Shown in pieces: positions 2,232-24,000 of a stretch of 24,000 nt of DNA. The position numbers and the translations under genes were made by a program. Origin of the DNA: Aureispira sp. (GTDB taxonomy: Bacteria; Bacteroidota; Bacteroidia; Chitinophagales; Saprospiraceae); contig JBGCDW010000054.1 of assembly GCA_045105775.1 (NCBI GenBank), forward strand, positions 27,559-51,558, read 5' to 3'. Within the stretch, counting starts at the first letter, position 1; each line of letters opens with the position of its first letter. Under the pieces are notes generated by a model, which ran no database searches, was not told the origin of the DNA, and saw only the letters and a program-made list of their open reading frames with translations.

Positions 2232-2272
2232 ATGATAATAGTTGGGTGTTGATAAAATTTAGCTCTGTCTAG

Positions 2273-2518
2273 ACAGATTTTAGGTACTTAAGCAAAGTTT
2301 GTGTCTTATTATTTTATGAAGCATTGAATACATATGCAAAGGAAAAAGTTAGACTTCAAAAAGAAGGCAATTTAATTCCTGATTTTGACTTATTGATAGG
2401 AACAACAGCTACGAACAACCATTTAATTTTGGTTACGAATAATGAAAAACACATGAACAGAATTAGTAACATCTGCATCAAAAATTGGAAAAAAGATTCT
2501 GATATAAATTTCTCATAA
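2273..2518 (+). pseudogene. Remnant of a PIN-domain (VapC-type) toxin gene; only the C-terminal half survives
   Basis: The translation ...YAKEKVRLQKEGNLIPDFDLLIGTTATNNHLILVTNNEKHMNRISNICIKNW matches the C-terminal PIN pattern (G-x-x-I-x-x-x-D-x-L-I-A-A-x-A ... L-V-T-x-N-x-x-x-F-x-R-I ... N-W). The frame is closed by an in-frame TAG at 2270-2272. The ~60 N-terminal residues carrying the first acidic residues are absent, there is no ATG start, and no antitoxin ORF lies upstream. Confidence 0.55.
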
Positions 2519-2723
2519 TATCTACTCCTACAATACCACAAAAAAACAAAAACATGAGTATAGAAATATCAGGAGAAGCAGACAGGTGTATAAGGAGAGG
2601 GTATTTTTAAGAAAATCACAATTGCTTGCATTTTTAATGAGAACTAAAAAATTAGAACACTCATTAGTTTGTGGTAATCATTGTATTAAGTTGTATAACT
2701 GTGTGCAGAGATGGGCATATGAA

Positions 2724-2908
2724 TTCTAAGGGTAAGCAAATTGGTTTTTCAGGAGCTGTTTTTTGCTGGCAAAAAACAAAACTTTTATTGTTTGAGCGAT
2801 AGCGAGTTTAAAAGTTTTAGCGGATGAAAAGGCTGTTTGCCCCTTAGAAGTCATCAAGCCCTAGCGTTTTTTTGCTTACTTTTTTGGGGCAATTGCCAAA
2901 AAAGTAAG
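2724..2908. repeat. Hairpin-dense non-coding element made of nested inverted repeats
   Basis: Read directly. Outer pairing: 2724-2740 (TTCTAAGGG[TAA]GCAAA) with 2836-2849 (TTTGCCCCTTAGAA), 14 bp with a 3-nt bulge. Inside it: GTTTTTTGC/GCAAAAAAC (2758-2766 / 2769-2777) and AAAACTTTTA/TAAAAGTTTT (2778-2787 / 2809-2818). A separate 13-bp perfect stem follows: CTTACTTTTTTGG/CCAAAAAAGTAAG (2875-2887 / 2896-2908). Confidence 0.4.
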
Positions 2909-3001
2909 ACCACTAAAGCCAAATACAAGGTATAAGATTTTGATTACCAAAGCTTTGAAAAGCCAAGAGTACATCAATATTAAAGAATCATAACTTACAA
3001 T

Positions 3002-3041
3002 AAAAAAACATGAGTCACCCCCAACTTAAGGGATGACTCAT
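3002..3041 (-). terminator. Rho-independent terminator of the minus-strand lipoprotein gene
   Basis: Stem 3010-3021 / 3030-3041 (ATGAGTCACCCC / GGGATGACTCAT, 11 bp plus 1 mismatch) with an 8-nt loop. On the minus strand it is followed by a 7-T run (A-run 3002-3008) and sits 24 nt after the stop. Confidence 0.65.
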
Positions 3042-3064
3042 ATTCCACTATCTGATAATGGGGA

Positions 3065-11014: not shown

Positions 11015-11062
11015 GATTGGAGGGTCTCAGAAATCGGAAGGGTTTTACTTCTTCCTACCTAG

Positions 11063-11109
11063 TATGTCGTCCCTTCAGGACTTAATCCAAGTCCCAACGG
11101 GACGACATA
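11063..11109. repeat. Nested palindrome (REP-like hairpin) between the convergent helicase and Y1-transposase genes
   Basis: Outer 11-bp perfect arms TATGTCGTCCC (11063-11073) / GGGACGACATA (11099-11109). Inner 6-bp arms GGACTT (11078-11083) / AAGTCC (11089-11094). A partial third copy GGACGACAGGG sits at 11120-11130. Confidence 0.5.
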
Positions 11110-11161
11110 ACAAAAGAAAGGACGACAGGGCTGACTCCTCATCCCAAACATACCGCTCATC

Positions 11162-11596
11162 CTATTCCACTTCATACTTCTCAAGCAGCCCTCGATACTC
11201 CTCCTTAAAATCTGTTCTACGGTGATGCGCATGTTGATTCTTAATGCAATTCATAACAACATCTACTTGATGTCGATTAACAGAAAAAGCCCCATAACCA
11301 TTCTGCCAAAAAAAATGAGCAAGGCTTTCATCATTCGTCGTCATCCGCTTAGAGGAATAAGACGTTACCTTTTGAACTAAAGTCATCAAAGGTATCTTTT
11401 GAGACAATCGGCACAAAATATGAATATGGTCAACATACCCTCCAACAATTAACGCAGGACACTCATAATCCTGACAAATCCGTGCCATATAAGCATGTAA
11501 GTCTTGTTCATAAGGAACATAAATAAGAGCTTCTCGATACTTTGTACTAAAGGCAATGTGAATATAATTTTGCACGAGTGACTGTCCCATAGTCAT
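11162..11596 (-). CDS. IS200/IS605-type Y1 (HUH) transposase-like protein, RAYT-like and solo (no tnpB, no IS ends recognised)
   Basis: N-terminal block NYIHIAFSTKYREALI, HUH motif DHIHIL (H57-I58-H59), WQNGYGAFSV, and the C-terminal block CIKNQHAHHRRTDFKEEY. In the family this block reads Y-I-x-N-Q-x-x-H-H; here position 117 is Cys. Confidence 0.8.
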   Translation of the reverse strand: MTMGQSLVQNYIHIAFSTKYREALIYVPYEQDLHAYMARICQDYECPALIVGGYVDHIHILCRLSQKIPLMTLVQKVTSYSSKRMTTNDESLAHFFWQNGYGAFSVNRHQVDVVMNCIKNQHAHHRRTDFKEEYRGLLEKYEVE

Positions 11597-11818
11597 TAAT
11601 TTTCTTTTAGCCGATTACTTTAAAACTTACTCACAATTTCACTAAAAACGTATAATAATTTCATTACGAACACCTCTATTTTAGAAGCCCAACCACCATA
11701 AAAGCCCCAACTTTTCGTTAAAAGATTGTATATTGTTTGAACTGCCTAATGAGGTCAGTGAGAGAATAAGGTATAATAGATACCCAACTTTGCTTTATAA
11801 AGAAAGAAACAAACGCTT

Positions 11819-14800
11819 ATGTGGAATCATAGACCACTTTTACTACTTGGCCTTTTAGCTGCTTTACTCACTCTTGGAAGCACCCTAACTGCCCAAGTTA
11901 CCTTAACAGTAAGAATAACCAGTGGAAGCTCTACCACCACTTGTACAGATGGTTTTTTTGGCGGTGCGCCAGAACCACACTGGCGGGTAGAAATAGATGG
12001 ACAAGGTTACACCACCTACCCCAGACGTGGACTTTGTTTTACCAATGCTCCCAATACACAATATTCCGAAGTATTTAATTGTAGCAATCGTTATCCCGTT
12101 GACTTGCCTATTTGCCTAAGAGCATTTGAAGACGATGGTGGAGCCTGTATTGTAAATGAAAGTTGCTTGGAACAAATCTGCCAAAATTTTGCCACGCCTG
12201 CCCCAGGAAACACCCTCAATTACACCCTCTCTGTCAATGGTTCCAGTTCGGCCACGGTCAACTTTAGCATCACTGCCACAGGAAGTTTCAATCTCCCAGG
12301 AGCCGCTTACAATACGATTTGTAATGCCGTAAACTTGGGCACACTCAATTCTAGCAGCACCATTGGCAATAGCAATTTGAGTAATTATGGTAATTTTTGT
12401 GCAGACAATCTAGGGGAGCCTAATCCTTGGGGCAACAACAACGATCAAGGCGTTTGGTTTCAATTTACCACCAGTGCCAGCCCTGCTGCGGTCATTGATA
12501 TAGAAGCAGAAAGCGATCCACAAAACATTGGTAATGATATAGATTTACAAATAGCCATTTACGAATCCAGCAATGGTACTTGTTCGGGCACCCTCAGCCT
12601 ATTAGAAGACAGTTACACAGGTTTTGGATTGCTCAATGATGAAGATTTATCGGTCAATTGTCTACAACCCAATACCACCTATTTTATTCTAGTAGATGGA
12701 GAAAGAACAAACCTTATTAACAATGGCGGACAAGAAGGATTTTTTGGTTTACAAATCGTAGATGCAGGCGTATTGCAAGCAGCCGATGAAATTTGTGATG
12801 CAGAATTCTTAGGGCTAGTTCCTGCTGGTGGTGCTGTAGCCACCCCCAATCTTAGCCGTTCCAATGTTTGTGCCACCAACACCAATGACCCCAATCCAGG
12901 GGCATGGGCTTCGGATCAAACCGTTTGGTTTCGTTTCCAAGCTCCCCCTACAGGACATGTTATTATAGAAGCAGATAGCGACCCCTTACTCCCCTTATCC
13001 AATGATCCTATTGATTTACAATTAGCCCTTTATGGTACAAATAACAATACTTGTACAGGCACCTTAGATTTTATTGCCTCAGAATACACCCCTGGTTTAT
13101 TTGGAGAAGACCTTGATGTGCGTTGTCTCACCCCAGGGCAAAATTACTGGATTTTGGTAGATGGTTCCCCACTCAATGTCGATGGTATTTTTGATATAAC
13201 GGTACGAGATGGCGGTATTCCACCTGCCCCCAATGACTTGAGTTGTGATGCCATTCCATTGGGCGCACCGGGCAATGGCGGAACCGTAGGTCTCAACAAT
13301 CAAAACAATTACTGTGCGGACAACATTTTTGAGCCCATTCCCAGCAATTGGGGAAATGACCAAGGTGTTTGGTATACCTTTATTGCACCACCTTCGGGTA
13401 AGGTCGAAGTTCGCTTGGACAATGGCAATATTATCACAGGTGATAACATAGATTTGCAAGTAGCTGTATACGATCTTACGGGAGCTGTTTGTACAGGAGT
13501 ACCCAATGAAATACGCTCCCAGCACAATGGTATTGGAATACTATGGGATGAAACCATGGAAGTAGAATGCCTAGAGCCAGGGCGTGAATATTGGATTTTG
13601 GTAGATGGGGAAGGTTCTTTGATTGATCCTGACCTACAAGAAGGCACCTTTGATATTGAAGTCTTTGGCGATCCGCGCGATTTGGCCTCGCCTTATGATG
13701 CCCCTTGCAATGCCTTGGCATTGGGCGATCCTACTGGAGGTTCTATAGGCACCAGCCCCATTACCAACCACGGCTCGCAAAATAATTTCTGCGCCGATGC
13801 CGCAGGTGAACCCCAACCCTCAGGTTTTACAGCCGATCAAACGGTTTGGTATACCTTTGTCGCGCCTTCTACGGGAAATGTCAACATTGATTTGAACTCG
13901 GATGCTGTTCTCGGAGGCGTTGATCCTATCAATTTGCAAATTGCCGTGTGGGAAAGCCCCAGTTGTAATGGGCCTTGGCGCGAGGAAGTGAGTGGTGACG
14001 ATTTGATTTATGATGTGGATTTGGATGTTTTCTGTCTTACGCCAGGACAAGTGTATTATGTGCAAGTAGATGGAGCTCCCCCTGCAATTTTGGGTGGCGA
14101 AGAGGGGTATTTTGATCTTACCATTTCAGAAATTCCTTCTATTCCAGTGGCACCCAATGATTCTATTTGTAATGCCATTGCCTTGGGCAATCCCTTTGCA
14201 GGAACCGTGGGAGTGACCAATCAACAAAATTTATGTGCCGATGATTTGGGTGATCCCAATCCTTCGGCCTTTGGCACCGATCAAACCGTTTGGTACAGCT
14301 TTACCACACCAGCCACAGGCGGGCCTTTTGCGGTAGATATTGATGCCAACTCTAGTTTGCCTTGGCCTTTTGGCAATAGAGATGCCATTGATTTACAAAT
14401 TGCTGTTTTTCAGTCTAGTAATAACACCTGTACAGGCGTACTGACCGAAGTAGAAAGCAGCTATTCGCTTCTAGATTTATTTGACGAGCAATTGAATGTG
14501 GCTTGCTTAGAAGAAAATCGAACCTATTTTGTAATGGTAGATGGATCTTTCTTGGACGTACAAGGCTACTTTGATATTTCTATATCTGCCGCTACCCCTG
14601 TTCCCATTCCAACCAATGACCTTATTTGTCAACACGAAGATTTGGGCACCGTACCTATTGGCGGAAGCCTAAACAACGGGGTCAATTATTACAATTTTTG
14701 TGCTGATGTAGAACCTGGTGAGCCGAGTCCTTTTGGCATTGAACAAACGGTGTGGTTCTCATTTATTGCCCCCAACCACCCTGGCCTCAATGCTACAGCC

Positions 14801-17800
14801 AATGTGACCATTTCGGTAGAGTCTGACCCTGCCAATGTGGGCAACAGTGTGGATTTGCAATTGGCGGTTTATGAATCGAGTAATAATACTTGTACGGGTG
14901 CCATGACTCTATTGGAAGAGGGCTCGGACGATCCTACTTTTAGTTTTGATGCAGAAGTCAATGTAACCTGTCTCTACCCTGGTAGACGATATTGGGTACA
15001 AGTAGATGGTTCTATTATCAACCAAGAAGGCTATTTCCAAATAGAAGTAGAAGACGATGGGGCTGGTTTCCGTCCGCCTTATAATTTAATTTGTAATGCC
15101 GAGCCTCTAGGGGTTGTTCCCAATGGTGGAAACATCAACAATGGGGTCAATTATACCAATTTATGTTCGGATACAGAACCTGGTGAACCCAATCCCAATG
15201 CCTTTTCTATTGACAAAACCGTGTGGTTTACCTTTACGGCTCCTGCCTCTGGTAATGTTACCATCAATGCAGAAAATGACCCCAACAACATTGGTGACGA
15301 AATTGATTTACAATTGGCCTTGTATTACTCGGTCAACAATACCTGCTCTGGCCCTTTCTTAGAAGTAGATAGCGATCATGATATTTTTAATAAAGATGAA
15401 TCCCTAACCGTAGATTGCTTGGAAGGAGGTCGTTTATATTTCTTGCAAGTAGATGGCTCCAATGGAGCATTTGGGGATGAAGATGGATGGTTTACCCTCG
15501 AAGTGACAGATGATGGTGGAACCAGTAGCTTCCCTTACAACAACAATATATGTGCTGCACGCAATTTTGGAATACCACTCGCTCCACAAACCCTCAACAA
15601 TGAATCCAATGAATGTGCAAATGTAGAGTTAGGCGAACCAGGAGCAGGCAGTTATGCCACCCACACCGTTTGGTACGAATTTGTAGCGCCCCCTTCTGGA
15701 CGCGTAGAAATTGAGGTGACTTCTAGTAATATTTTCTTAGGAATGGATCCTGAAGTACGCCTGTTTTCTTCTAGTAATAATACGTGTACAGGCAATTTAT
15801 CCCAAATCGAACGTTCCAACTTACCTACTGCACTGATTCCAGAGAATATTGAGGCCAATTGCTTAATCCCAGGCAACACCTATTTCATTCAAGTAGATGG
15901 CTCTGGTTTGGTCATTGAGGGGCAATTTAACATTACCATCGAAGCCATCTTCCCCAATTATGGGACAGGGCTGGCAGGCGACCCAGAACCAAGCAACAAT
16001 GCTTGTGATAGTGCAATTACATTAGCGGTTCAGTCACAATCTTGCCTCAATGCTTCGGGCACCTTTACCAATCTCAATTATGGCTATCCCACCATCACTT
16101 ACAATCCTGCCTTTGCACAAGGCTGTGGAGGCAATTGTGGGGCTACTTGGTATCAATTTACCATGCCTGCTTCGGGCAATGCTGTTATTGAAGGCAATGA
16201 TGATAATATTGGTGGGGGAATTATTGGAGATTTCTCTGATTTGGTCGTGGCCGCGTATACAGGTACTTGTAACAACCTCACGCCTATTGATTGTGACCAA
16301 GGTGGCTTCACCAGCGATGTTTCCTTCCAAGTAGCCGCCGCTCCAGGCACCACTATTTGGCTGCAAGTGTTTAATGATGATGGTGATGACGAAGGCGAAG
16401 AATACCAATTGTGTATTTCCGAAGGTTGTGGTTTTGATGATTGTTTGAATGCTTTGGCTGTGCCCATGCTGCCCAATGTGCCTTACTGTTTTAATACAGC
16501 AGGAGCCAATGGCGAAGATGTAGCAGGCGGAAGTGCGGGCTATTTTGAATGTTCAGAAGGTGACAACCCCGAAAACTCCGTTTATTATTACTTTGTATCC
16601 GATTGTAATGGTAGCGATGTGACCTTAAGCGTCATCAATGCCGTTTCTAATGGTAATTGTATTTTGGGTATTACCCCTACCGATGGTTTTAATATTTCTT
16701 TGTTCCAAGATGCAACGCCTTGTGATAACAACCCCGATACCTTGGTAGATTGCCAGACCTTTACATCCTGTGATGTACAACCCGTCAACTGGTCACAAAC
16801 CTACACAGGACTCTCACCCAACACCCCTTATATCATTCAAATTGATGGTGGTTTTGGTGCCTTAGGTGGTGACAATGTGGGTGAAATTATGATTACAACT
16901 ACCACCGACCCTGTCGTCGCTCCTGTTTCTACGCCACTCTCTTGTTCTGGGTTGAATAATGGAACCGCTTCGGCAGTTACACAGGGAGGTGTTGGCCCTT
17001 TCACCTTCTTATGGAGCAACAACAGTACAGATTCTACCGCCACCAACCTAGCCGCAGGTACTTATTTTGTTACTGTTACAGGTAGTAATGGTTGTTTTGA
17101 TACCGCTAGTGTAGTGGTAGGCAATAGCACGCCTTTGATCGCCACTATTACCAATGCCTCGGATGCTACTTGTGGTAATAATTGCAATGGACAAGCTTCC
17201 GTAACTGCTTTGGGAGGTTCTGTAGCAACCAATTATACCTATTTGTGGAATGATCCCAATGCCCAAACTACGGCTACTGCTACCAATTTATGTGCAGGAA
17301 CATACACCGTGACGGTTTATGATGATAATGCTTGTTTTGATACCACTAGTGTAGTCATTAATGCTCCACCTCCTATCCTTATTCAAGTAGATTCTATTAG
17401 AAATATTGCTTGTGGGGGTACTTGTGATGGGCAAATTAGCTTGTCTGCTTCTGGTGGAACGGCTCCTAATGGTTATCAATACAATTGGTCTACAGGAGCA
17501 ACAACGGCACAAATCAGCAACTTATGTGCGGGCAATTATACCGTTACTGTAGCAGATGATAACGGCTGTACAGATACCTTAACCATTGTATTAACGCAGC
17601 CTAGCAGTGTCACACTGGCCTTGACCCAACAAAGTAATATTGATTGTAATGGAGATAGTACAGGCAGCATTGCTGTTATTGCCAACAATGGAACACCCAA
17701 TTATACCTATAATTTATACAACAATACAGGATTGCTCTCCAGCAACACCACAGGAAGTTTTGGTAATTTACCTGCTCAAGCTTATGGTATTTTGGTGCAA

Positions 17801-20800
17801 GATGACTTAGGTTGTACCGATTCTATTGCGGTAGTATTGACCGAGCCACTGGCATTGACACTTAACTTGGTAAGTTCTAGCAATAGCAGTTGTTTTGGAG
17901 CCAATGACGGTGCTATTACGGTACAAGGCAATGGAGGAACAGCTCCTTATAGTTATGCTTTGGATGGTATTAATTTTAGTGTTAATAATGCCTTTAATAA
18001 CCTAGTAGCTGGTTCTTATACCATAACCGTCCGCGACAGCCTCAATTGTAACACAACTCTTGCACTCAATCTTACCGAACCAGCCGCAATTGTTCTCACC
18101 AACAACAACCAAACAAATGCGAGTTGTGGGGCTTGTGATGGTACCGCTACGGTGGGTGCTAGTGGTGGCGCGGGTTCATTTAGTTATCTTTGGACAAGTG
18201 GCGAAACCACCCCAACAGCTACGGCTTTGTGTGCTGGAAATAATACGGTAACTGTAACCGATGCCAATGGCTGTACCGCTACCGCTGCTTTTATTATTGG
18301 TAATGCTAGTGGATTTACGGCTAGTGCCAGTATAGATCAAGCTATTAGTTGTTTTGGCAATTGCAATGGTGCCGTAAGTATAGATGCACCTACTGGTGGA
18401 GGCAGTTTTACCACACTCTGGAATACAGGAGCTACAACAGATAGCATTAATAACTTATGTGCAGGTAACTATACCGCTACTGTCACAGATGCCAATGGCT
18501 GTTTTGTTATTCAAACCATCAATTTGGTAGCCCCCGACAGCCTCACGGCTCTTGCAGCTACTTTGCAAGATGTTTCTTGTGTAGGCAATACAGATGGGCA
18601 AGCTACGGTGACTATTAATGGCGGTACAGGGCCTTACACTATTTTGTGGGATGATAACAACGCCAATGCTACCAATACGGCCCTAACGGCAGGGCTACAC
18701 ACAGTGACCGTTACCGATGCAAGAGGGTGTGTGGCTACGGCTAGTACCACTATTGGCAGTCCAACACCACTCAACATTAGCATACAAAACACCACCGCCT
18801 CCAATTGTGGCACCTCAGGCTGTGATGGCACGGCTACCGTTGTGGTAACAGGCGGCCAAGGCTCTTATACCTACTTGTGGAATAATGGCAACACCAGTCC
18901 TACTCCTAATGATTTGTGCCCCAACTTCAATGGCGTTACCGTAACCGATGCCAACGGCTGTACGATTACGGCTAGTGTACTCATTCCAGCCAACAGTTCG
19001 CTCAATCTAAGCCTTAGCAACTCAACCGAACCAAGTTGCCACCGTGCTTGTGATGGCAGCCTAACGGTGGTTGCTGCTGGGGGAAATAACAGCAGCCCTT
19101 ATACCTTCCAATGGGATGATCCTAGCAACCAAAATACCGCTACAGCCAGCAACTTATGTGCAGGAACATATCGAGTAACCGTTAGTGATATTGATGGCTG
19201 TACAGCAGCAGCAGCCTTTACATTGGGGCAGCCCGACAGCATAACCATAAACTTAAGCCCAACAGCCGCGAGTTGTGCTGGGGTTAATAATGGTCGTATC
19301 AGCAGCCTAGCACAAGGAGGCACCATTCCTTACAGCTATCAGTGGAGTTCGGGAGCGACTACAGCTACCCTATCCAATGTTGGAGCAGGCAATTACACCC
19401 TAACGCTTACCGATGCCAATGGCTGTACGGCTATTGCCAATGCTGCTGTATTGGATGCAGATTCGCTGATTACCAATACTAATATTCCTACGCCTTATAA
19501 TGGCCAGCAAATTTCCTGTGCCAATGGCAATGATGGACAAGCTTCTGTCACGGTTACAGGGGGCACCGCTCCTTATAGCTATTTGTGGATTAATGGAGAC
19601 ACAACAGCCACAACTACAGGTTTGCAAGCCAGCACCTATCCTATTACCATCACCGATGCCAATGGCTGCTCTACAATAGATAGTGTTACGCTCATGCATC
19701 CTCCTCAAATTATAGCCAACACACAAATCATTTCTTCTTACAATGGTTATAATACCAGTTGTTATAGTAGCAATGATGGGGTTATTGTTGCGACAGCAAC
19801 AGGGGGCACAGGCAGTTATACTTATCTCTGGTCGGATGGCCAAACAGGAGATACAGCCACGGCACTCAATGGCGGTACTTATGCCCTAACGGTTACAGAC
19901 ATCAATGGATGTTTTATTGTGGTTACCGATTCCCTCACCGCCCCTGATCGTTTGGAAGATACGATTGTGATCAGCCAAACGGTAAGTTGCTTTGGGGGCA
20001 ATGATGGCAATGCAACCGTTATTCCAACAGGTGGTATTGCCCCTTACACTTATACTTGGAGTACAGGAAGCACAACGGCCACTGCTAACAACTTGGCTTT
20101 GGGCTGGCACTATGTTACAATTACGGATCTTAATACCTGCTTCTTGATAGACAGTGTTTATATAACCGAACCAGATGCGATTGAACCCAATTTGAGTGCA
20201 ACCCCAATCAATTGTGCCAATAGTGCGGATGGCTCGGCTACCGCCACAGCAACAGGAGGAACCGCACCCTATCAATTCTTATGGTCTAATAATGGGACTA
20301 CAGCTACCATTAATAATTTAACAGCAGGAACCTATGTGGTTACAATTACTGATGATAATTCTTGTACCATCGTAGATAGTATTGTGGTTGCTGCACCTAC
20401 AGCTATAATTGCAACCGCCCAACAAACACAAGCCATTAGTTGCCCTGTAACAGCCGATGCAGCCGCTACGGCTACCGCCACAGGAGGCACGATTCCCTAT
20501 CGTTTCGTGTGGTCTACAGGGGCCACTACAGCCACCATTCAGACCCTAACGGCAGGCAGCTATCAAGTGACCATTACTGATAATAATGGCTGTTCGGATA
20601 CGGCTAGTATAGTGATTAGTGATCCAGCACCATTACAGGTAACAGTTGCCGCAGATTTGATTTATAATGGGCAAGCTATTAGTTGTGCAGGGGCTGTTGA
20701 TGGGCAAGCGACAGTTACAGCTACAGGCGGCACGGGTTCGTACACCTATTTGTGGCCCGATGGACAAACCACTGCTACGGCTACAGGCTTAGGCCCTCAA

Positions 20801-22798
20801 CTGTATTGGGTATCTGTTACCGATGCCAATGGCTGTTCGGACACCGCTCAAGTACAATTGGCTGCACCAACTCCCTTACAAGGATCGGCCAGTGTTACGG
20901 GTACGATTGATTGTGCTGGGGGCAATGATGGCAGTGCAGCAGCGACCGCCTCAGGGGGCACCCTTCCTTATAGTTATGCTTGGAGTACAGGCGACACCAC
21001 TGCCACAACGACAACCTTGACGGTAGGCAGCCACCAAGTTACCATTACAGATGCCAATGGCTGTTCAGTCACGGCTAGTGTCAACTTGGGCGAACCCAAT
21101 CCAATTGTGCTCATTAGTTCAGCGACTAATGTGAGTTGTTTTGGGGGCAATAATGGTACAGCCAATGTCATTGCTCAAGCAGGCACCTTGCCCTATTCTT
21201 ACTTGTGGTCCAATGGCCAAACAAACAGTACAGCCACAACACTAACGGCTGGCATCCATTATGTCACAGTTACCGATGCCAATGGTTGTTCTCAAATAGA
21301 TTCTCAACTCATCACACAACCTAGCCCAATTGCCATTACATTTAGTAATATCATTGATATTGATTGTGTTAACCATCTAACAGGCACTGCGACAGCTACT
21401 GTAACGGGAGGAGTGGGTGTTTATCGTTACCAATGGAATGGAGTCCCCAATGCTACGGCTACGGCCACCAACCTACTGTATGGTTGGAATGAATTGGTCG
21501 TCTCGGATGCCAATGGTTGCACACAGTTGGATTCGGTCTTTATCAATACGCCCAATCCTATGACCACCACTGCTATTGGTTTAGATGCAGGTTGTTTTGG
21601 GGCTACAGATGGTGAAGGAGCCGTAACCGTTGCAGGCGGAACACCCCCCTATCAATACTTGTGGTCTACAGGAGCGACCAGCTCTGCTATCAACAATTTA
21701 GGAGCAGGTATTTATACCGTCACGGTTACAGATAGTATAGGTTGCTTTACAATAGAAACGGTTGTAATTGGTCAAAATGATCCTTTACAAGCTTTATTCT
21801 CACAGGTCACTGCACCTGATTGTAATAATGGAACAGAAGGTTCTATTACGGCCATTGTACAAGGAGGTTTGTCGCCTTACCAATTCATTTGGAGCACAGG
21901 GCAGCAGCTTATTGATAGCAGTACTTCTACGATTAATAATCTTGGAGCGGGCAACTATTTCTTGACCATTACCGATCAAGAAAATTGTTCTACCACCTTG
22001 GATACAAGCATTCTTGATCCTGCACGTTTGTCAGCTACGGCCAAAGGTTCTAGGTTGCAATGTTTTGGAGATAGTAGTGGTACGATCACAGTGGTCGCTT
22101 CTGGAGGAACAGCCCCCTACTTCTACAGCTTGAACGGCGGGCCTATTCAAAGCAGTGGCAGCTTTACCAACCTAAGCGCAGGTGCATACAATATTGTGGT
22201 GAATGATGCTGGAGGTTGTATATTTACAACTTCTGCAGCCGTTACACAAGCTGATTCGGTGCTACTAGATGTTACAGCTGACCAAAGTATTCGATTTGGA
22301 GAAACCGTTCAATTGTATGTTCGTTTACCCATCAACGCGCCCATCAATCCTGTCATTACTTGGACACCAGCCAATGGATTGAGTTGTACCAATTGTTTCC
22401 AGCCTATTGCACAGCCTTCGCGCTCTACTTTGTATACGGTAACGGTGACAGGAGATAATGGTTGTATCAGTACAGCCGATGTTTTTGTGGAGGTGGATAA
22501 TGATAAAGGGGTATTTGTACCTGATGCTTTTTCTCCCAATGGCGACCGCACCAATGATGTATTTATGCTGTACAGTGCTGGATCCGTAGAAGCTATTGAA
22601 GAATTTATGATCTTTGATCGTTGGGGCGAATTGGTTTGCTTGCACAACAATGTACAACCCAATTATCCAGCTTATGGTTGGGATGGCACCTTCTTGGGCC
22701 AACCTCTGAATGCAGGCGTATTTATTTACTACATCAAGGTGCGTTACTTTGATGGTACCACAGAGATTCTCAAAGGGGATGTGACCTTGATCCGATAA
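11819..22798 (+). CDS. Giant (3,659-aa) T9SS-secreted cell-surface protein, SprB-repeat adhesin-like
   Basis: One uninterrupted ORF. It has an N-terminal signal peptide (MWNHRPLLLLGLLAALLTLGSTLTAQ), a modular repeat body and a type-B T9SS C-terminal domain; sub-features are listed separately. A near-consensus -7 box CAACTTTG lies at 11785-11792. Confidence 0.9.
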   Translation: MWNHRPLLLLGLLAALLTLGSTLTAQVTLTVRITSGSSTTTCTDGFFGGAPEPHWRVEIDGQGYTTYPRRGLCFTNAPNTQYSEVFNCSNRYPVDLPICLRAFEDDGGACIVNESCLEQICQNFATPAPGNTLNYTLSVNGSSSATVNFSITATGSFNLPGAAYNTICNAVNLGTLNSSSTIGNSNLSNYGNFCADNLGEPNPWGNNNDQGVWFQFTTSASPAAVIDIEAESDPQNIGNDIDLQIAIYESSNGTCSGTLSLLEDSYTGFGLLNDEDLSVNCLQPNTTYFILVDGERTNLINNGGQEGFFGLQIVDAGVLQAADEICDAEFLGLVPAGGAVATPNLSRSNVCATNTNDPNPGAWASDQTVWFRFQAPPTGHVIIEADSDPLLPLSNDPIDLQLALYGTNNNTCTGTLDFIASEYTPGLFGEDLDVRCLTPGQNYWILVDGSPLNVDGIFDITVRDGGIPPAPNDLSCDAIPLGAPGNGGTVGLNNQNNYCADNIFEPIPSNWGNDQGVWYTFIAPPSGKVEVRLDNGNIITGDNIDLQVAVYDLTGAVCTGVPNEIRSQHNGIGILWDETMEVECLEPGREYWILVDGEGSLIDPDLQEGTFDIEVFGDPRDLASPYDAPCNALALGDPTGGSIGTSPITNHGSQNNFCADAAGEPQPSGFTADQTVWYTFVAPSTGNVNIDLNSDAVLGGVDPINLQIAVWESPSCNGPWREEVSGDDLIYDVDLDVFCLTPGQVYYVQVDGAPPAILGGEEGYFDLTISEIPSIPVAPNDSICNAIALGNPFAGTVGVTNQQNLCADDLGDPNPSAFGTDQTVWYSFTTPATGGPFAVDIDANSSLPWPFGNRDAIDLQIAVFQSSNNTCTGVLTEVESSYSLLDLFDEQLNVACLEENRTYFVMVDGSFLDVQGYFDISISAATPVPIPTNDLICQHEDLGTVPIGGSLNNGVNYYNFCADVEPGEPSPFGIEQTVWFSFIAPNHPGLNATANVTISVESDPANVGNSVDLQLAVYESSNNTCTGAMTLLEEGSDDPTFSFDAEVNVTCLYPGRRYWVQVDGSIINQEGYFQIEVEDDGAGFRPPYNLICNAEPLGVVPNGGNINNGVNYTNLCSDTEPGEPNPNAFSIDKTVWFTFTAPASGNVTINAENDPNNIGDEIDLQLALYYSVNNTCSGPFLEVDSDHDIFNKDESLTVDCLEGGRLYFLQVDGSNGAFGDEDGWFTLEVTDDGGTSSFPYNNNICAARNFGIPLAPQTLNNESNECANVELGEPGAGSYATHTVWYEFVAPPSGRVEIEVTSSNIFLGMDPEVRLFSSSNNTCTGNLSQIERSNLPTALIPENIEANCLIPGNTYFIQVDGSGLVIEGQFNITIEAIFPNYGTGLAGDPEPSNNACDSAITLAVQSQSCLNASGTFTNLNYGYPTITYNPAFAQGCGGNCGATWYQFTMPASGNAVIEGNDDNIGGGIIGDFSDLVVAAYTGTCNNLTPIDCDQGGFTSDVSFQVAAAPGTTIWLQVFNDDGDDEGEEYQLCISEGCGFDDCLNALAVPMLPNVPYCFNTAGANGEDVAGGSAGYFECSEGDNPENSVYYYFVSDCNGSDVTLSVINAVSNGNCILGITPTDGFNISLFQDATPCDNNPDTLVDCQTFTSCDVQPVNWSQTYTGLSPNTPYIIQIDGGFGALGGDNVGEIMITTTTDPVVAPVSTPLSCSGLNNGTASAVTQGGVGPFTFLWSNNSTDSTATNLAAGTYFVTVTGSNGCFDTASVVVGNSTPLIATITNASDATCGNNCNGQASVTALGGSVATNYTYLWNDPNAQTTATATNLCAGTYTVTVYDDNACFDTTSVVINAPPPILIQVDSIRNIACGGTCDGQISLSASGGTAPNGYQYNWSTGATTAQISNLCAGNYTVTVADDNGCTDTLTIVLTQPSSVTLALTQQSNIDCNGDSTGSIAVIANNGTPNYTYNLYNNTGLLSSNTTGSFGNLPAQAYGILVQDDLGCTDSIAVVLTEPLALTLNLVSSSNSSCFGANDGAITVQGNGGTAPYSYALDGINFSVNNAFNNLVAGSYTITVRDSLNCNTTLALNLTEPAAIVLTNNNQTNASCGACDGTATVGASGGAGSFSYLWTSGETTPTATALCAGNNTVTVTDANGCTATAAFIIGNASGFTASASIDQAISCFGNCNGAVSIDAPTGGGSFTTLWNTGATTDSINNLCAGNYTATVTDANGCFVIQTINLVAPDSLTALAATLQDVSCVGNTDGQATVTINGGTGPYTILWDDNNANATNTALTAGLHTVTVTDARGCVATASTTIGSPTPLNISIQNTTASNCGTSGCDGTATVVVTGGQGSYTYLWNNGNTSPTPNDLCPNFNGVTVTDANGCTITASVLIPANSSLNLSLSNSTEPSCHRACDGSLTVVAAGGNNSSPYTFQWDDPSNQNTATASNLCAGTYRVTVSDIDGCTAAAAFTLGQPDSITINLSPTAASCAGVNNGRISSLAQGGTIPYSYQWSSGATTATLSNVGAGNYTLTLTDANGCTAIANAAVLDADSLITNTNIPTPYNGQQISCANGNDGQASVTVTGGTAPYSYLWINGDTTATTTGLQASTYPITITDANGCSTIDSVTLMHPPQIIANTQIISSYNGYNTSCYSSNDGVIVATATGGTGSYTYLWSDGQTGDTATALNGGTYALTVTDINGCFIVVTDSLTAPDRLEDTIVISQTVSCFGGNDGNATVIPTGGIAPYTYTWSTGSTTATANNLALGWHYVTITDLNTCFLIDSVYITEPDAIEPNLSATPINCANSADGSATATATGGTAPYQFLWSNNGTTATINNLTAGTYVVTITDDNSCTIVDSIVVAAPTAIIATAQQTQAISCPVTADAAATATATGGTIPYRFVWSTGATTATIQTLTAGSYQVTITDNNGCSDTASIVISDPAPLQVTVAADLIYNGQAISCAGAVDGQATVTATGGTGSYTYLWPDGQTTATATGLGPQLYWVSVTDANGCSDTAQVQLAAPTPLQGSASVTGTIDCAGGNDGSAAATASGGTLPYSYAWSTGDTTATTTTLTVGSHQVTITDANGCSVTASVNLGEPNPIVLISSATNVSCFGGNNGTANVIAQAGTLPYSYLWSNGQTNSTATTLTAGIHYVTVTDANGCSQIDSQLITQPSPIAITFSNIIDIDCVNHLTGTATATVTGGVGVYRYQWNGVPNATATATNLLYGWNELVVSDANGCTQLDSVFINTPNPMTTTAIGLDAGCFGATDGEGAVTVAGGTPPYQYLWSTGATSSAINNLGAGIYTVTVTDSIGCFTIETVVIGQNDPLQALFSQVTAPDCNNGTEGSITAIVQGGLSPYQFIWSTGQQLIDSSTSTINNLGAGNYFLTITDQENCSTTLDTSILDPARLSATAKGSRLQCFGDSSGTITVVASGGTAPYFYSLNGGPIQSSGSFTNLSAGAYNIVVNDAGGCIFTTSAAVTQADSVLLDVTADQSIRFGETVQLYVRLPINAPINPVITWTPANGLSCTNCFQPIAQPSRSTLYTVTVTGDNGCISTADVFVEVDNDKGVFVPDAFSPNGDRTNDVFMLYSAGSVEAIEEFMIFDRWGELVCLHNNVQPNYPAYGWDGTFLGQPLNAGVFIYYIKVRYFDGTTEILKGDVTLIR
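11897..12316 (+). other. Unique Cys-rich N-terminal head domain (aa ~27-166) of the giant protein; family unknown
   Basis: VTLTVRITSGSSTTTCTDGFFGGAPEPHWRVEIDGQGY...CLRAFEDDGGACIVNESCLEQICQNF... contains 8 Cys and is not repeated elsewhere in the ORF. Confidence 0.5.
12320..16906 (+). repeat. Tandem array of 10 ~146-158-aa four-cysteine modules (8 canonical, 2 degenerate), coding
   Basis: The first conserved Cys of each module falls at aa 168, 326, 476, 630, 784, 937, 1092, 1245, 1396 and 1542 (nt 12320, 12794, 13244, 13706, 14168, 14627, 15092, 15551, 16004, 16442). Recurrent blocks are C-[ND]-A-x-x-L-G, N-x-C-A-D...E-P-x-P, DQTVW[FY]xFxAPxSGxVxI, IDLQ[IL]A[VIL]Y.S.NNTCTG, V.CL.PG..Y[FW][IV].VDG and G.F.I.V. 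Confidence 0.8.
16934..22258 (+). repeat. 23 tandem SprB-type repeats (~77 aa each), coding
   Basis: Each unit follows the pattern C-x-G-x-x-[DN]-G-x-[AI]-x-V-x-x-x-G-G-x-x-P-Y-x-Y-x-W-[SN]-x-G-x-T-x-x-x-x-x-x-L-x-A-G-x-Y-x-V-T-[VI]-T-D-x-N-G-C. I counted 23 units by eye from SCSGLNNG (aa 1709) to LQCFGDSSG. Confidence 0.85.
22511..22795 (+). other. T9SS type-B C-terminal sorting domain (gliding-motility-associated C-terminal domain, TIGR04131-like), preceded by an Ig-like module (22262-22510)
   Basis: VFVPDAFSPNGDRTNDVFMLY...MIFDRWGELVC...GWDGTFLGQPLNAGVFIYYIKV...LKGDVTLIR matches the conserved blocks of the type-B CTD (P-x-A-F-S-P-N-G-D-x-x-N-D, I-F-[ND]-R-W-G, W-D-G, G-x-Y-x-Y, G-x-V-x-L-I-R). 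Confidence 0.85.
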
Positions 22799-22875
22799 AC
22801 ACACAGATAATTATTATATATATTAATGGTTATCACAAAATAAAAACCATCAACATCATCAACATGTGGGTGGCG

Positions 22876-22912
22876 CGGCAGTACAAAACACGTTTTTTGT
22901 GCTGCCGTTTTT
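22876..22912 (+). terminator. Rho-independent terminator of the giant gene
   Basis: 13-bp stem CGGCAGTACAAAA (22876-22888) / TTTTGTGCTGCCG (22895-22907) with one G-U pair, a 6-nt loop, then TTTTT (22908-22912). It sits 78 nt after the stop. Confidence 0.75.
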
Positions 22913-23102: not shown

Positions 23103-23263
23103 AAAAATTCATAAAACATTAACCATCATTCATTCTTCATTTTTGGCACTTTATTGGCATAGTGTAAAGCAACTTAACAAGTAAATAACTAAAAATTGAG
23201 TTTTATTGGGAAGTAAAATTCAATGGAAAGATAATAAATTTGGGTTTTAATTGGGGTGATTAA

Positions 23264-23295
23264 AGACTTAGAAAGTCGGGAAGCTTTCTAAGTCT
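23264..23295. repeat. Hairpin A of a twin-hairpin pair (12-bp perfect stem, loop TCGGGAAG)
   Basis: AGACTTAGAAAG (23264-23275) / CTTTCTAAGTCT (23284-23295). Confidence 0.5.
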
Positions 23296-23321
23296 AACTT
23301 CAAAAAATCCAAACAAATTTT

Positions 23322-23367
23322 AAAAAAAGATCTAAAAAGTCGGGAAACTTTTTAGATCTTTTTTTTT
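23322..23367. terminator. Hairpin B of the twin pair (12-bp perfect stem, loop TCGGGAAA) flanked by A-run and T-run; bidirectional terminator-like
   Basis: AGATCTAAAAAG (23328-23339) / CTTTTTAGATCT (23348-23359). An A-run at 23322-23327 and a T-run from 23360 extend the stem. Confidence 0.5.
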
Positions 23368-23555: not shown

Positions 23556-24000
23556 ATGAAAGTATTTTTTCTCTCCTTTTGTTTATTAATTATTGCCACA
23601 ATCACCCAAGCACAGCAAGAGCCTGTCTTGGACACCGTAGCCGTGCTCAACGCCCAAAAAGCACTAGAAGAAGCAGAAATTTTGTATAGCATAGAACATA
23701 TCAATTATGCCAAGGCTGCCCTAGAATTGAGTGTACTGTACATGCAAGTGCCTGATTTGGTATATGAATGGGAAGACATTGCTTTAGAATCCTTGTCCAA
23801 AATTCGACAAGAAGAAGGGGCAGAAAGCAGTGTTTACAAAGCATCTATTGCCAAGCTTCCCAAGCCACTCGATCAGCTATTTGATAGCCAATTGGCACTA
23901 GAAGAAGCCGAAGCCACTAAAAACGAAAACCCTGCTTTGTACGTCGAAAAGCTTTTCTGGCGAGCCAAGATTTTTATAGACAATGATGATTTAGAATCTT
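23556..24000 (+). CDS. Secreted hypothetical protein, 5' portion (runs off the right edge); possibly helical-repeat
   Basis: This ORF is not in the supplied track. I translated it by hand: ATG 23556 gives MKVFFLSFCLLIIATITQAQQEPVLDTVAVLNAQKALEEAEILYSIEHINYAKAALELS... It has a clear signal peptide and the frame stays open to position 24000. Confidence 0.6.
   Translation, partial: MKVFFLSFCLLIIATITQAQQEPVLDTVAVLNAQKALEEAEILYSIEHINYAKAALELSVLYMQVPDLVYEWEDIALESLSKIRQEEGAESSVYKASIAKLPKPLDQLFDSQLALEEAEATKNENPALYVEKLFWRAKIFIDNDDLES

Follow-up and report, generated by a model that had tools for sequence, protein, structure and literature searches.

A giant orphan type-B T9SS substrate of Aureispira with a conserved C2-like head and PPC-like modules is a candidate fibrillar adhesin

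Introduction

Giant adhesins that a type IX secretion system (T9SS) carries out of the cell are common, and the ligands of their distal ends are mostly unknown. We analysed a stretch of 24,000 nucleotides (nt) from Aureispira sp. (GenBank assembly GCA_045105775.1, contig JBGCDW010000054.1, positions 27,559 to 51,558 of the forward strand), which is called the window below and in whose coordinates all features are given. One of its genes, at 11819..22798 on the + strand, encodes a giant protein with SprB-type repeats and a T9SS C-terminal domain (CTD) of type B. What would such a protein do at the cell surface, and which part of it would make contact? A filament of the kind is on record in Aureispira sp. 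CCB-QB1, where the 5,898-amino-acid (aa) protein GhpA forms a 240-nm heptameric grappling hook with an N-terminal distal hook (bioRxiv 10.1101/2024.01.29.577165).

The best explanation for the window gene is that it is monocistronic and encodes an orphan type-B T9SS substrate, a fibrillar surface adhesin of Aureispira-like Saprospiraceae. To its core, a T9SS-anchored fibrillar adhesin with a distal binding array, we assign a probability of about 0.75. Giant SprB-repeat adhesins with a type-B CTD are a kind already known; the new part is the tip, which consists of a head and ten modules.

Results

A single uninterrupted gene encodes a tiered protein

The giant gene is a single open reading frame (ORF) that starts with ATG, runs for 10,980 nt with 0 internal stops, encodes 3,659 aa and occupies 45.75% of the window, as the initial annotation, made from the letters of the sequence, had described (one uninterrupted frame, ~46%). 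The mature protein was computed to have 3,634 aa, a mass of 377 kDa and a very acidic pI of ~4.05, with 345 Asp and Glu against 51 Lys and Arg, and 117 Cys. Tandem Repeats Finder (TRF) detected no tandem DNA repeats in the gene, the longest internal DNA repeats did not exceed 107 nt in length or 84% in identity, and the identity between protein units is low; assembly collapse is therefore unlikely. Independent support for the gene model came from metagenome-assembled genomes (MAGs), whose assemblies show the same architecture with the same boundaries. These results indicate that the 10,980-nt ORF is a real gene.

The order of parts in the initial annotation (head, modules, SprB stalk, type-B CTD) was confirmed by matches to PF13573 and TIGR04131, the profiles that it had named as a check, and to PF13585. 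The protein begins with a predicted Sec signal peptide (11819..11893, + strand; aa 1-25), recognised by inspection from its basic n-region, 15-residue hydrophobic core and A|Q cleavage site, with cleavage predicted at A25|Q26 (MWNHRPLLLLGLLAALLTLGSTLTA|QV). Among 112 heads of the family described below, position -1 of this site is Ala, Gly or Ser in 107 and position +1 is Gln in 110. The A/G/S|Q pattern fits the Bacteroidota signal-peptidase-I 'Q-rule', under which the N-terminal Gln is cyclised.

The head is modelled as a C2-like domain with conserved acidic loops

The N-terminal head (11894..12295, + strand; aa 26-159) was modelled with AlphaFold2 (AF2) from an alignment of its family as an eight-stranded beta-sandwich with a pLDDT of 87.5. 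When the model was compared with the Protein Data Bank (PDB) by Foldseek, the top ~47 matches were all C2 domains (E ~1e-4, TM 0.4-0.5), including the N-terminal C2 domains of the Notch ligands DLL4 and Jagged and those of cPLA2 and the extended synaptotagmins (E-Syt). Acidic residues are near-invariant at four positions of the 112 heads: D44 is present in 107, Asp or Glu at position 52 in 99, Glu or Asp at 104 in 111, and D106 in 106 (109 with three Glu included). The window head carries D44, E52, E104 and D106. The strand map of the predicted model puts these residues into two loops, b1-b2 and b5-b6, that share one end of the sandwich; this is the end at which topology II (cPLA2-type) C2 domains have their Ca2+-binding loops. 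The heads also share the motifs T-C-T-D...P-[DE]-P-x-W-x-V and F-E-[DN]-D-G, and in P-[DE]-P-x-W-x-V we presume a resemblance to the C2 signature 'DPY-V-x-V'. The head would accordingly present a putative conserved acidic pocket of Ca2+-binding type, and the likeness of its model to C2 domains is at the level of fold and motif only: relative to the C2 domains that it resembles in its eight strands and in the acidic residues of the two loops, the head is bacterial, predicted to be extracellular and disulfide-rich, and its sequence homology to them is not significant.

Seven Cys were found in the head (aa 42, 73, 88, 99, 110, 116 and 121; 11942-12181), each conserved in at least 101 of the 112 family members. 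The odd number implies either one free thiol or a disulfide between domains or chains. In GhpA, disulfides join neighbouring Ig-like domains.

The head occurs once in the window protein and had at first been called unique. That description did not hold: a head-only profile retrieved 145 representative clusters (E<=1e-3) among 1.84 billion, so that the head belongs to a recurrent family. In nearly all of its members it is N-terminal, starting at residue ~18-31, right after the signal peptide.

Ten homologous modules follow the head

Alignment divided aa 160-1700 into ten consecutive homologous modules of ~146-167 aa each with pairwise identities of 15-53%. Modules M1-M8 (12296..15979, + strand; aa 160-1387) are ~150 aa long, have exactly four Cys each and are 32-53% identical to one another. 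M9 (15980..16417, + strand; aa 1388-1533) is divergent and has seven Cys, and M10 (16418..16918, + strand; aa 1534-1700), the most divergent within the protein, has nine. Both belong to the series: M9 cross-matched other modules (M7-type) in phmmer with E ~1e-5 to 1e-10, and M10 aligned by hhalign with a module profile built without M9 and M10 (probability 93%, E=3.3e-7). Of the initial description, '10 four-Cys modules', the ten homologous modules were recovered and the four Cys were found in eight of them only.

The AF2 model of M7, built from a family alignment, reached a pLDDT of 94.3. Its top Foldseek matches were the claudin-binding domain of Clostridium perfringens enterotoxin (C-CPE), the collagen-binding domain (CBD) of ColG and a PPC domain of B. 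anthracis (probability 1.00, E ~1e-4, TM by target 0.5-0.66). The predicted fold is thus a beta-sandwich of the PPC/collagen-binding type, and the folds that it matches are all ligand-binding beta-sandwiches of the PPC superfamily. Sub-threshold profile signals agree with this PPC-like model; they come from PF04151 (PPC) and from PF23759 (GBD_T9SS_assoc), for which the best single module was M9 (21.8 bits, cut-off 27) and the sum over the whole protein 39.5 bits. M7 superposes on PPC, ColG CBD and C-CPE, but the window modules are longer than PPC-type domains (~150 aa vs ~100-125 aa), have four conserved Cys and an extra N-terminal segment, and stand in a ten-fold tandem array.

M10 also exists on its own: the 360-aa protein P0036 from Cytophagales consists of M10 and a type-A CTD. 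M10 may have a function of its own besides joining tip to stalk. An M10-type module was also seen in other head-bearing architectures (L024/L027).

The stalk, the pre-CTD module and the sorting domain

The stalk (16925..22261, + strand; aa 1703-3481) is built of 23 SprB-type units of 73-82 aa with two or four Cys each. Our alignment reproduced the 23 repeats of the initial annotation, and PF13573 (SprB) marked 22 stretches (E=1.3e-171, 556 bits). C7, G22 and C57 are invariant in the units, whose mutual identity is 21-55% (mean 37%). The motif D-[ST]-[AILVMT] is the Bacteroidota O-glycosylation sequon, and 25 of its 28 occurrences lie in the stalk, with 0 in the head. Judged by these motifs, the SprB units are probably O-glycosylated, as reported for the stalk of GhpA.

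The stalk is followed by a pre-CTD module (22262..22510, + strand; aa 3482-3564), which has only a YTVTVTGDNGC hairpin in common with the SprB units (hhalign against the SprB-unit profile: probability 84%, E=7e-6, 21 columns). The same module precedes the CTD in relatives of ~1,530 aa. One copy of DNA repeat family D1 lies inside it, at 22424-22472. The type-B T9SS C-terminal sorting domain (22511..22798 with the stop codon, + strand; aa 3565-3659) was identified by two profiles, both above cut-off at the extreme C-terminus, which bears out the initial assignment: TIGR04131 covered aa 3567-3659 with positions 3-85 of its 85 (42.5 bits against a cut-off of 35, E=5.3e-11), and PF13585 (CHU_C), whose cut-off is 27, covered aa 3566-3646 and scored 42.2 bits when the whole protein was scanned and 49.1 bits on the C-terminal fragment. 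No catalytic domain was detected in Pfam and NCBIfam scans of the protein.

One tip cassette is carried on stalks of different length

An exact look-up of the window protein in the assembly collection gave no entry. A search for protein homologues gave only relatives of up to ~800 aa, and full-length relatives were obtained from a scan of genome contigs and a search of representative sequences. The loci of syntenic orthologues extend 10 kb past the match, short of the CTD, and P0089, P0094 and P0088 served as complete giants with a type-B CTD. The head-bearing proteins fall into several classes. Giants, for example P0094 (4,547 aa), P0089 (3,984 aa), P0088 (3,008 aa) and the window protein, have 8-10 modules, usually including one of M10 type, 16-35 SprB units and a type-B CTD. 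A ~1,530-aa class (for example L028 and L031-L038) has two modules, 8-9 SprB units and a type-B CTD, and a ~1,150-aa class that holds most clusters (P0113 and many others) has two modules, six SprB units and a type-B CTD. Proteins of 470-800 aa (such as P0003, P0004 and P0019) have one to three modules, 0 SprB units and a type-A CTD. One tip cassette on stalks of 0, 6, 8-9 or 16-35 SprB units is what one would expect if an adhesive module were mounted on a spacer that varies.

About 28 of 40 head-bearing loci are from Saprospiraceae; among the others are loci from Ekhidna, Kordia, Fluviicola, Vicingus and Maribacter. The closest species-representative loci are in the Aureispira MAGs L001 (head identity 92%) and L005 (91%), followed by the Saprospiraceae MAG L003 (80%). 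The suggested connection with ixotrophic Saprospiraceae fits this taxonomy, with Aureispira MAGs of conserved synteny as the nearest loci. Upstream of the window gene, the order is a Cys/Met-PLP enzyme, a fatty-acid desaturase, an unannotated ORF, TraB/GumN and a DEAD-box helicase, with the giant gene after them. L005 and L003 have the same arrangement and L011 has part of it, with protein identities of 52-89%, and the conserved synteny identifies these loci as true orthologues.

Domain boundaries were identical in seven MAG loci (L001, L004-L006, L009, L010 and L012), each with the head, the modules, M10 at ~aa 1530-1700 and 23 SprB units from ~aa 1700. L003 matches this architecture with 22 SprB units. 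Its orthologue (L003 10001-20237) ends at 3,412 aa after the 22 units, without a CTD, which may reflect either a genuine truncation or an error, be it an indel of the assembly or a misread base.

Conservation typical of purifying selection extends along the whole protein and is stronger in the tip than in the stalk. Identity to the window protein in the head and M1-M10 was 87-97% for L005, 75-94% for L004 and 67-83% for L009; the corresponding values for the SprB units were 68-96%, 41-75% and 28-65%. In six of the eight orthologues compared, no domain was better conserved than M10, whose identity to the eight is 73-99%. We take the difference between tip and stalk to mean that a specific working end under constraint sits on a spacer that is freer to drift.

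Single Aureispira MAGs contain two giant head-bearing paralogues, L004 and L011 in CALDEP01 (Aureispira sp.) and L025 and L041 in JAAEPD01 (Aureispira sp. Cli_1), and the giant class is thus duplicated within genomes. In CALDEP01, L011 has the upstream genes of the window and L004 does not. Directly downstream of P0089, L041 carries three tandem paralogous ORFs of 181-183 aa without a Pfam hit (20264-21984); the 1.2 kb downstream of the window gene contains no counterpart of them.

The gene has no linked shuttle gene

The dependence of type-B substrates on PorP/SprF shuttles, with an unlinked shuttle shared by orphan substrates, has been described (PMC12618676; PMC9143113). In Flavobacterium johnsoniae, nine of the 12 type-B substrates have a shuttle gene directly downstream and three are orphans; these three (Fjoh_1123, Fjoh_1720, Fjoh_4934) have one unlinked SprF-like shuttle, Fjoh_1677, in common and are brought to the gliding machinery, and a substrate linked to PorP and a PorE homologue appears to be statically anchored (PMC12618676).

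The neighbours of the giant gene are housekeeping genes, with the IS200-type transposase gene and the DEAD-box helicase gene upstream. Within 11.8 kb upstream and 1.2 kb downstream we found no PorP/SprF, PorE, sprC/sprD or other T9SS gene. The transcript would end at an intrinsic-terminator-like hairpin 77 nt past the stop codon (22875..22908, + strand), a 14-bp stem followed by a T-run and one of five terminator-like sites in the region, where 0.4 were expected. Then come ~750 nt of ORF-free, AT-rich DNA and, at 23556, an unrelated signal-peptide-bearing ORF that runs off the window and gave no hit in a Pfam scan. PorP/SprF genes were likewise not found beside P0089, the complete Aureispira relative, or among the scanned flanking ORFs of four loci of the ~1,530-aa class (L028, L029, L031 and L035). 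With no linked shuttle gene and a terminator of its own, the window protein counts among the type-B substrates that PMC12618676 calls 'orphan'. By analogy, this arrangement leans towards loading onto the gliding track.

Flanking sequences and other features of the window

The ~140 nt before the start codon (11680..11818, + strand) are the only intergenic part that can be aligned among the window, L005 and L003, and the start codon is conserved along with them. Segments conserved in this block include ...CATAAAAGC.CC..TTTCGTTAAAAGATTGTATATT... and AGAAAGAAAC.AA..CTTATGTGGAA. From its position and conservation, the block is likely to hold the promoter and 5' leader of the giant gene; it may be either of these or a regulatory element of another kind. 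An Rfam search of the window, including 11680-11818, gave no match.

The interval that separates the DEAD-box helicase gene from the giant gene holds an insertion (11015-11690) with an IS200/IS605-type Y1 transposase gene (11162-11596, - strand; PF01797, E=3e-22). The transposase gene lies ~220 nt upstream of the start of the giant gene, and the insertion ends just before the conserved block. L005 and L003 lack the element in the syntenic intergenic region, and it is therefore a lineage-specific insertion.

In the ORF-free, AT-rich DNA behind the giant gene, at 23260-23365, we observed two similar long hairpins with a shared loop core AAGTCGGGAA (GACTTAGAAAGTCGGGAAGCTTTCTAAGTC, and AGATCTAAAAAGTCGGGAAACTTTTTAGATCT followed by a T-run), which may be REP-like elements or bidirectional terminators. 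Another ~830 nt (2232-3064) contain short ORFs only; one of them, at 2324-2518 (64 aa, ...LIPDFDLLIGTTATNNHLILVTNNEKHMNRI...), may be the C-terminal remnant of a PIN/VapC-type toxin.

Discussion

The window protein as a probable T9SS-anchored fibrillar adhesin

From the families to which its parts belong, the protein would be exported by Sec and cut by signal peptidase I before Q26, and would fold in the periplasm with disulfides drawn from its 117 Cys. The T9SS would recognise the type-B CTD at the C-terminus, and a PorP/SprF-type shuttle encoded elsewhere in the genome would hold the protein on the outer membrane by this end. The 23 SprB units would then act as a spacer and keep the 1,700 aa at the N-terminus ~100-150 nm away from the cell; scaling from GhpA (240 nm per 5,898 aa) gives a rough filament length of ~150 nm. 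The distal working end would comprise the ten PPC/galactose-binding-like modules capped by the C2-like head. It would bind a conserved ligand on other cells or surfaces multivalently, probably in a Ca2+-dependent manner, the ligand being a glycan or an anionic lipid or lipopolysaccharide (LPS). GhpA has its N-terminus at the distal end (bioRxiv 10.1101/2024.01.29.577165). A distal ligand-binding tip had been proposed in the initial annotation, and the proposal is strengthened by the C2-like model of the head, the PPC-like model of the module and the higher conservation of the tip than of the stalk.

This design resembles that of bacterial fibrillar adhesins, in which an adhesive region at the tip stands on a stalk of repeated beta-sandwiches of variable number (PMC8286594, PMC9210967). 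The window protein differs from them in its anchor, which would be a T9SS type-B CTD and not sortase, T1SS or T5SS, and in its unusually large adhesive region of 11 domains and ~1,700 aa.

Several points weigh against our preferred explanation. The C2 profile of Pfam (PF00168) gave no match to the head, which had no Pfam hit at E<=1, and an NCBIfam scan of the whole protein gave none to the tip. An hhalign comparison of the head profile with an approximate sequence of the C2 domain of cPLA2 was not significant (probability 0.2%). The Foldseek TM-scores of the head and module models are moderate (0.4-0.66), the best single-module score for PF04151, 22.9 bits, is below the cut-off of 25.9, and the odd count of seven Cys in the head would leave one unpaired or bonded to another domain or chain. 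A cognate shuttle gene was not found within the 24 kb of genome examined. Expression, secretion and surface localisation are predictions from the gene sequence, and the IS200-type gene upstream could affect expression of the giant gene. Insertion sequences are reported to act as on-off switches of ixotrophy genes in Aureispira (bioRxiv 10.1101/2024.01.29.577165).

Comparison with SprB and GhpA

In F. johnsoniae, sprB belongs to the operon sprCDBF. SprB and the window protein are both giant, Sec- and T9SS-dependent, made up mostly of SprB-type repeats and equipped with a type-B CTD; SprB has 6,497 aa and its gene adjoins the shuttle gene sprF (PMC12618676), whereas the window protein has 3,659 aa, no linked shuttle and its own terminator. 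In genetic arrangement, which is all that was compared, the protein is like the three F. johnsoniae orphans, which also combine a type-B CTD with the lack of an adjacent porP/sprF-like gene. These orphans are probably the closest match for how it would leave the translocon and be targeted, and its loading onto a gliding track would be an extrapolation from them. RemA was considered as an analogue among type-B adhesins and dropped, since it has a type-A CTD (PMC12618676).

With GhpA the window protein shares a genus-level lineage, giant size as a T9SS cargo, an N-terminal distal binding region and a long beta-sandwich stalk, and, as far as its predicted features go, C-terminal anchoring and a stalk rich in Cys and glycans. 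The ghpA gene is followed by ghpB (PorP) and ghpC (PorE) (bioRxiv 10.1101/2024.01.29.577165). Neither these genes nor the 5,898-aa size and heptameric state of GhpA were seen for the window protein. In searches of PDB sequences, which include full-length GhpA (9flp), a head-plus-module profile, a module profile and the CTD gave no match to GhpA at E<=1 to 10, and phmmer with aa 1701-3659 gave no match at E<=0.001. The SprB-unit profile matched GhpA marginally (E=0.0055, 19.8 bits), and the sequence searches from tip, stalk and CTD yielded only type-A CTD matches, reached via short relatives. The window protein is therefore no detectable homologue of GhpA in these searches, with no match from tip or CTD and a marginal one from the stalk, and what the two have in common is their overall design.

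Alternative explanations

Much of the evidence would also suit a protein that binds substrate or matrix, such as polysaccharide, detritus or biofilm, for example as a tether to algal surfaces or particles, and that takes no part in cell-cell recognition or predation. Folds of the PPC, collagen-binding and galactose-binding-like kinds typically serve secreted hydrolases as substrate-binding modules, the scans revealed no catalytic domain, and the short relatives end in a type-A CTD, as do many enzymes and binding proteins that are secreted. This account overlaps largely with the best explanation, from which it differs in the ligand only; the type-B CTD and the long stalk speak for a filament anchored to the cell and against a binder that is released, and the one-to-one conservation of all ten modules across genera suggests a specific conserved target. 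We regard it as possible, with odds well short of even. That the gene is the SprB orthologue of the organism, its main mobile adhesin on the helical gliding track with an N-terminal array that gives surface traction only, appears unlikely. The 23 SprB repeats and the type-B CTD would fit, F. johnsoniae orphans without a linked shuttle go to the gliding machinery (PMC12618676), and Aureispira glides and has a reported SprB homologue, WP_052599872.1 (bioRxiv 10.1101/2024.01.29.577165). Yet no sprC/sprD/sprF-type operon accompanies the gene, which has housekeeping neighbours and its own terminator, and the protein is little more than half as long as F. johnsoniae SprB (3,659 aa vs 6,497 aa). Some MAGs contain more than one giant paralogue (L004 and L011), and the head and modules also occur on stalkless type-A CTD proteins, which would be unexpected for a dedicated gliding-track adhesin.

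Still more doubtful is a static, multimeric prey-capture appendage like GhpA, a second 'grappling hook' for ixotrophy. It draws on the Aureispira-like genome, on a giant T9SS cargo that combines an N-terminal binding region with a beta-sandwich stalk, and on the richness of that stalk in Cys and glycosylation-type motifs, as reported for GhpA. The head family is moreover concentrated in Saprospiraceae and found in MAGs of Ekhidna and Kordia, the latter a genus with an algicidal species. Ekhidna, too, includes an algicidal species (PMC12998431). Against such an appendage, the head, module and CTD queries miss GhpA and the SprB-unit profile reaches it only marginally, homologues of ghpB (PorP) and ghpC (PorE) are missing downstream, and the F. 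johnsoniae substrates that appear static are those linked to PorP and PorE (PMC12618676). Finally, repeat-rich giant genes misassemble easily, and the early end of the relative L003 (3,412 aa, no CTD) and the IS200-type gene just upstream could be taken as marks of an assembly artefact or of a decaying pseudogene of collapsed or chimeric repeats. This we consider highly improbable in view of 10,980 nt without a stop, the lack of tandem DNA repeats (the repeats present reach at most 84% over at most 107 nt), domain boundaries that seven independent MAGs share exactly and an eighth almost exactly, the conserved start codon and upstream region, and the purifying-selection-like conservation over the full length.

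Implications

The adhesin explanation that we prefer leads to a further, speculative proposal, to which we give a small chance: the head-plus-module cassette would define an undescribed family of T9SS contact filaments, and its giant form would be a second device, independent of GhpA, that binds the envelopes of prey or host multivalently and in a Ca2+-dependent manner. Its targets would be anionic lipid, LPS or glycan, and it would work either riding the gliding track or as a long-range tether. The family so proposed is concentrated in predatory Saprospiraceae (Aureispira, Saprospira), has further members in Ekhidna and Kordia MAGs, and carries its conserved tip on stalks of discrete length (0, 6, 8-9 and 16-35 SprB units).

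What is new about the tip is that it forms a compact conserved family without an NCBIfam model and without a Pfam match above threshold on single domains, to which folds have now been assigned from predicted models. The family has a conserved predicted acidic pocket, occurs on several stalk lengths with both CTD types and is concentrated in a predatory lineage. More constrained than the stalk and recurring on varied stalks with both types of CTD, the tip lends itself well to a search for its ligand. The window protein, being an orphan type-B substrate, offers a test case for the choice of cargo by unlinked PorP/SprF shuttles outside Flavobacterium. Its occurrence in a lineage with a known prey-catching filament, GhpA, lets one ask whether other T9SS filaments may aid contact with prey or surfaces.

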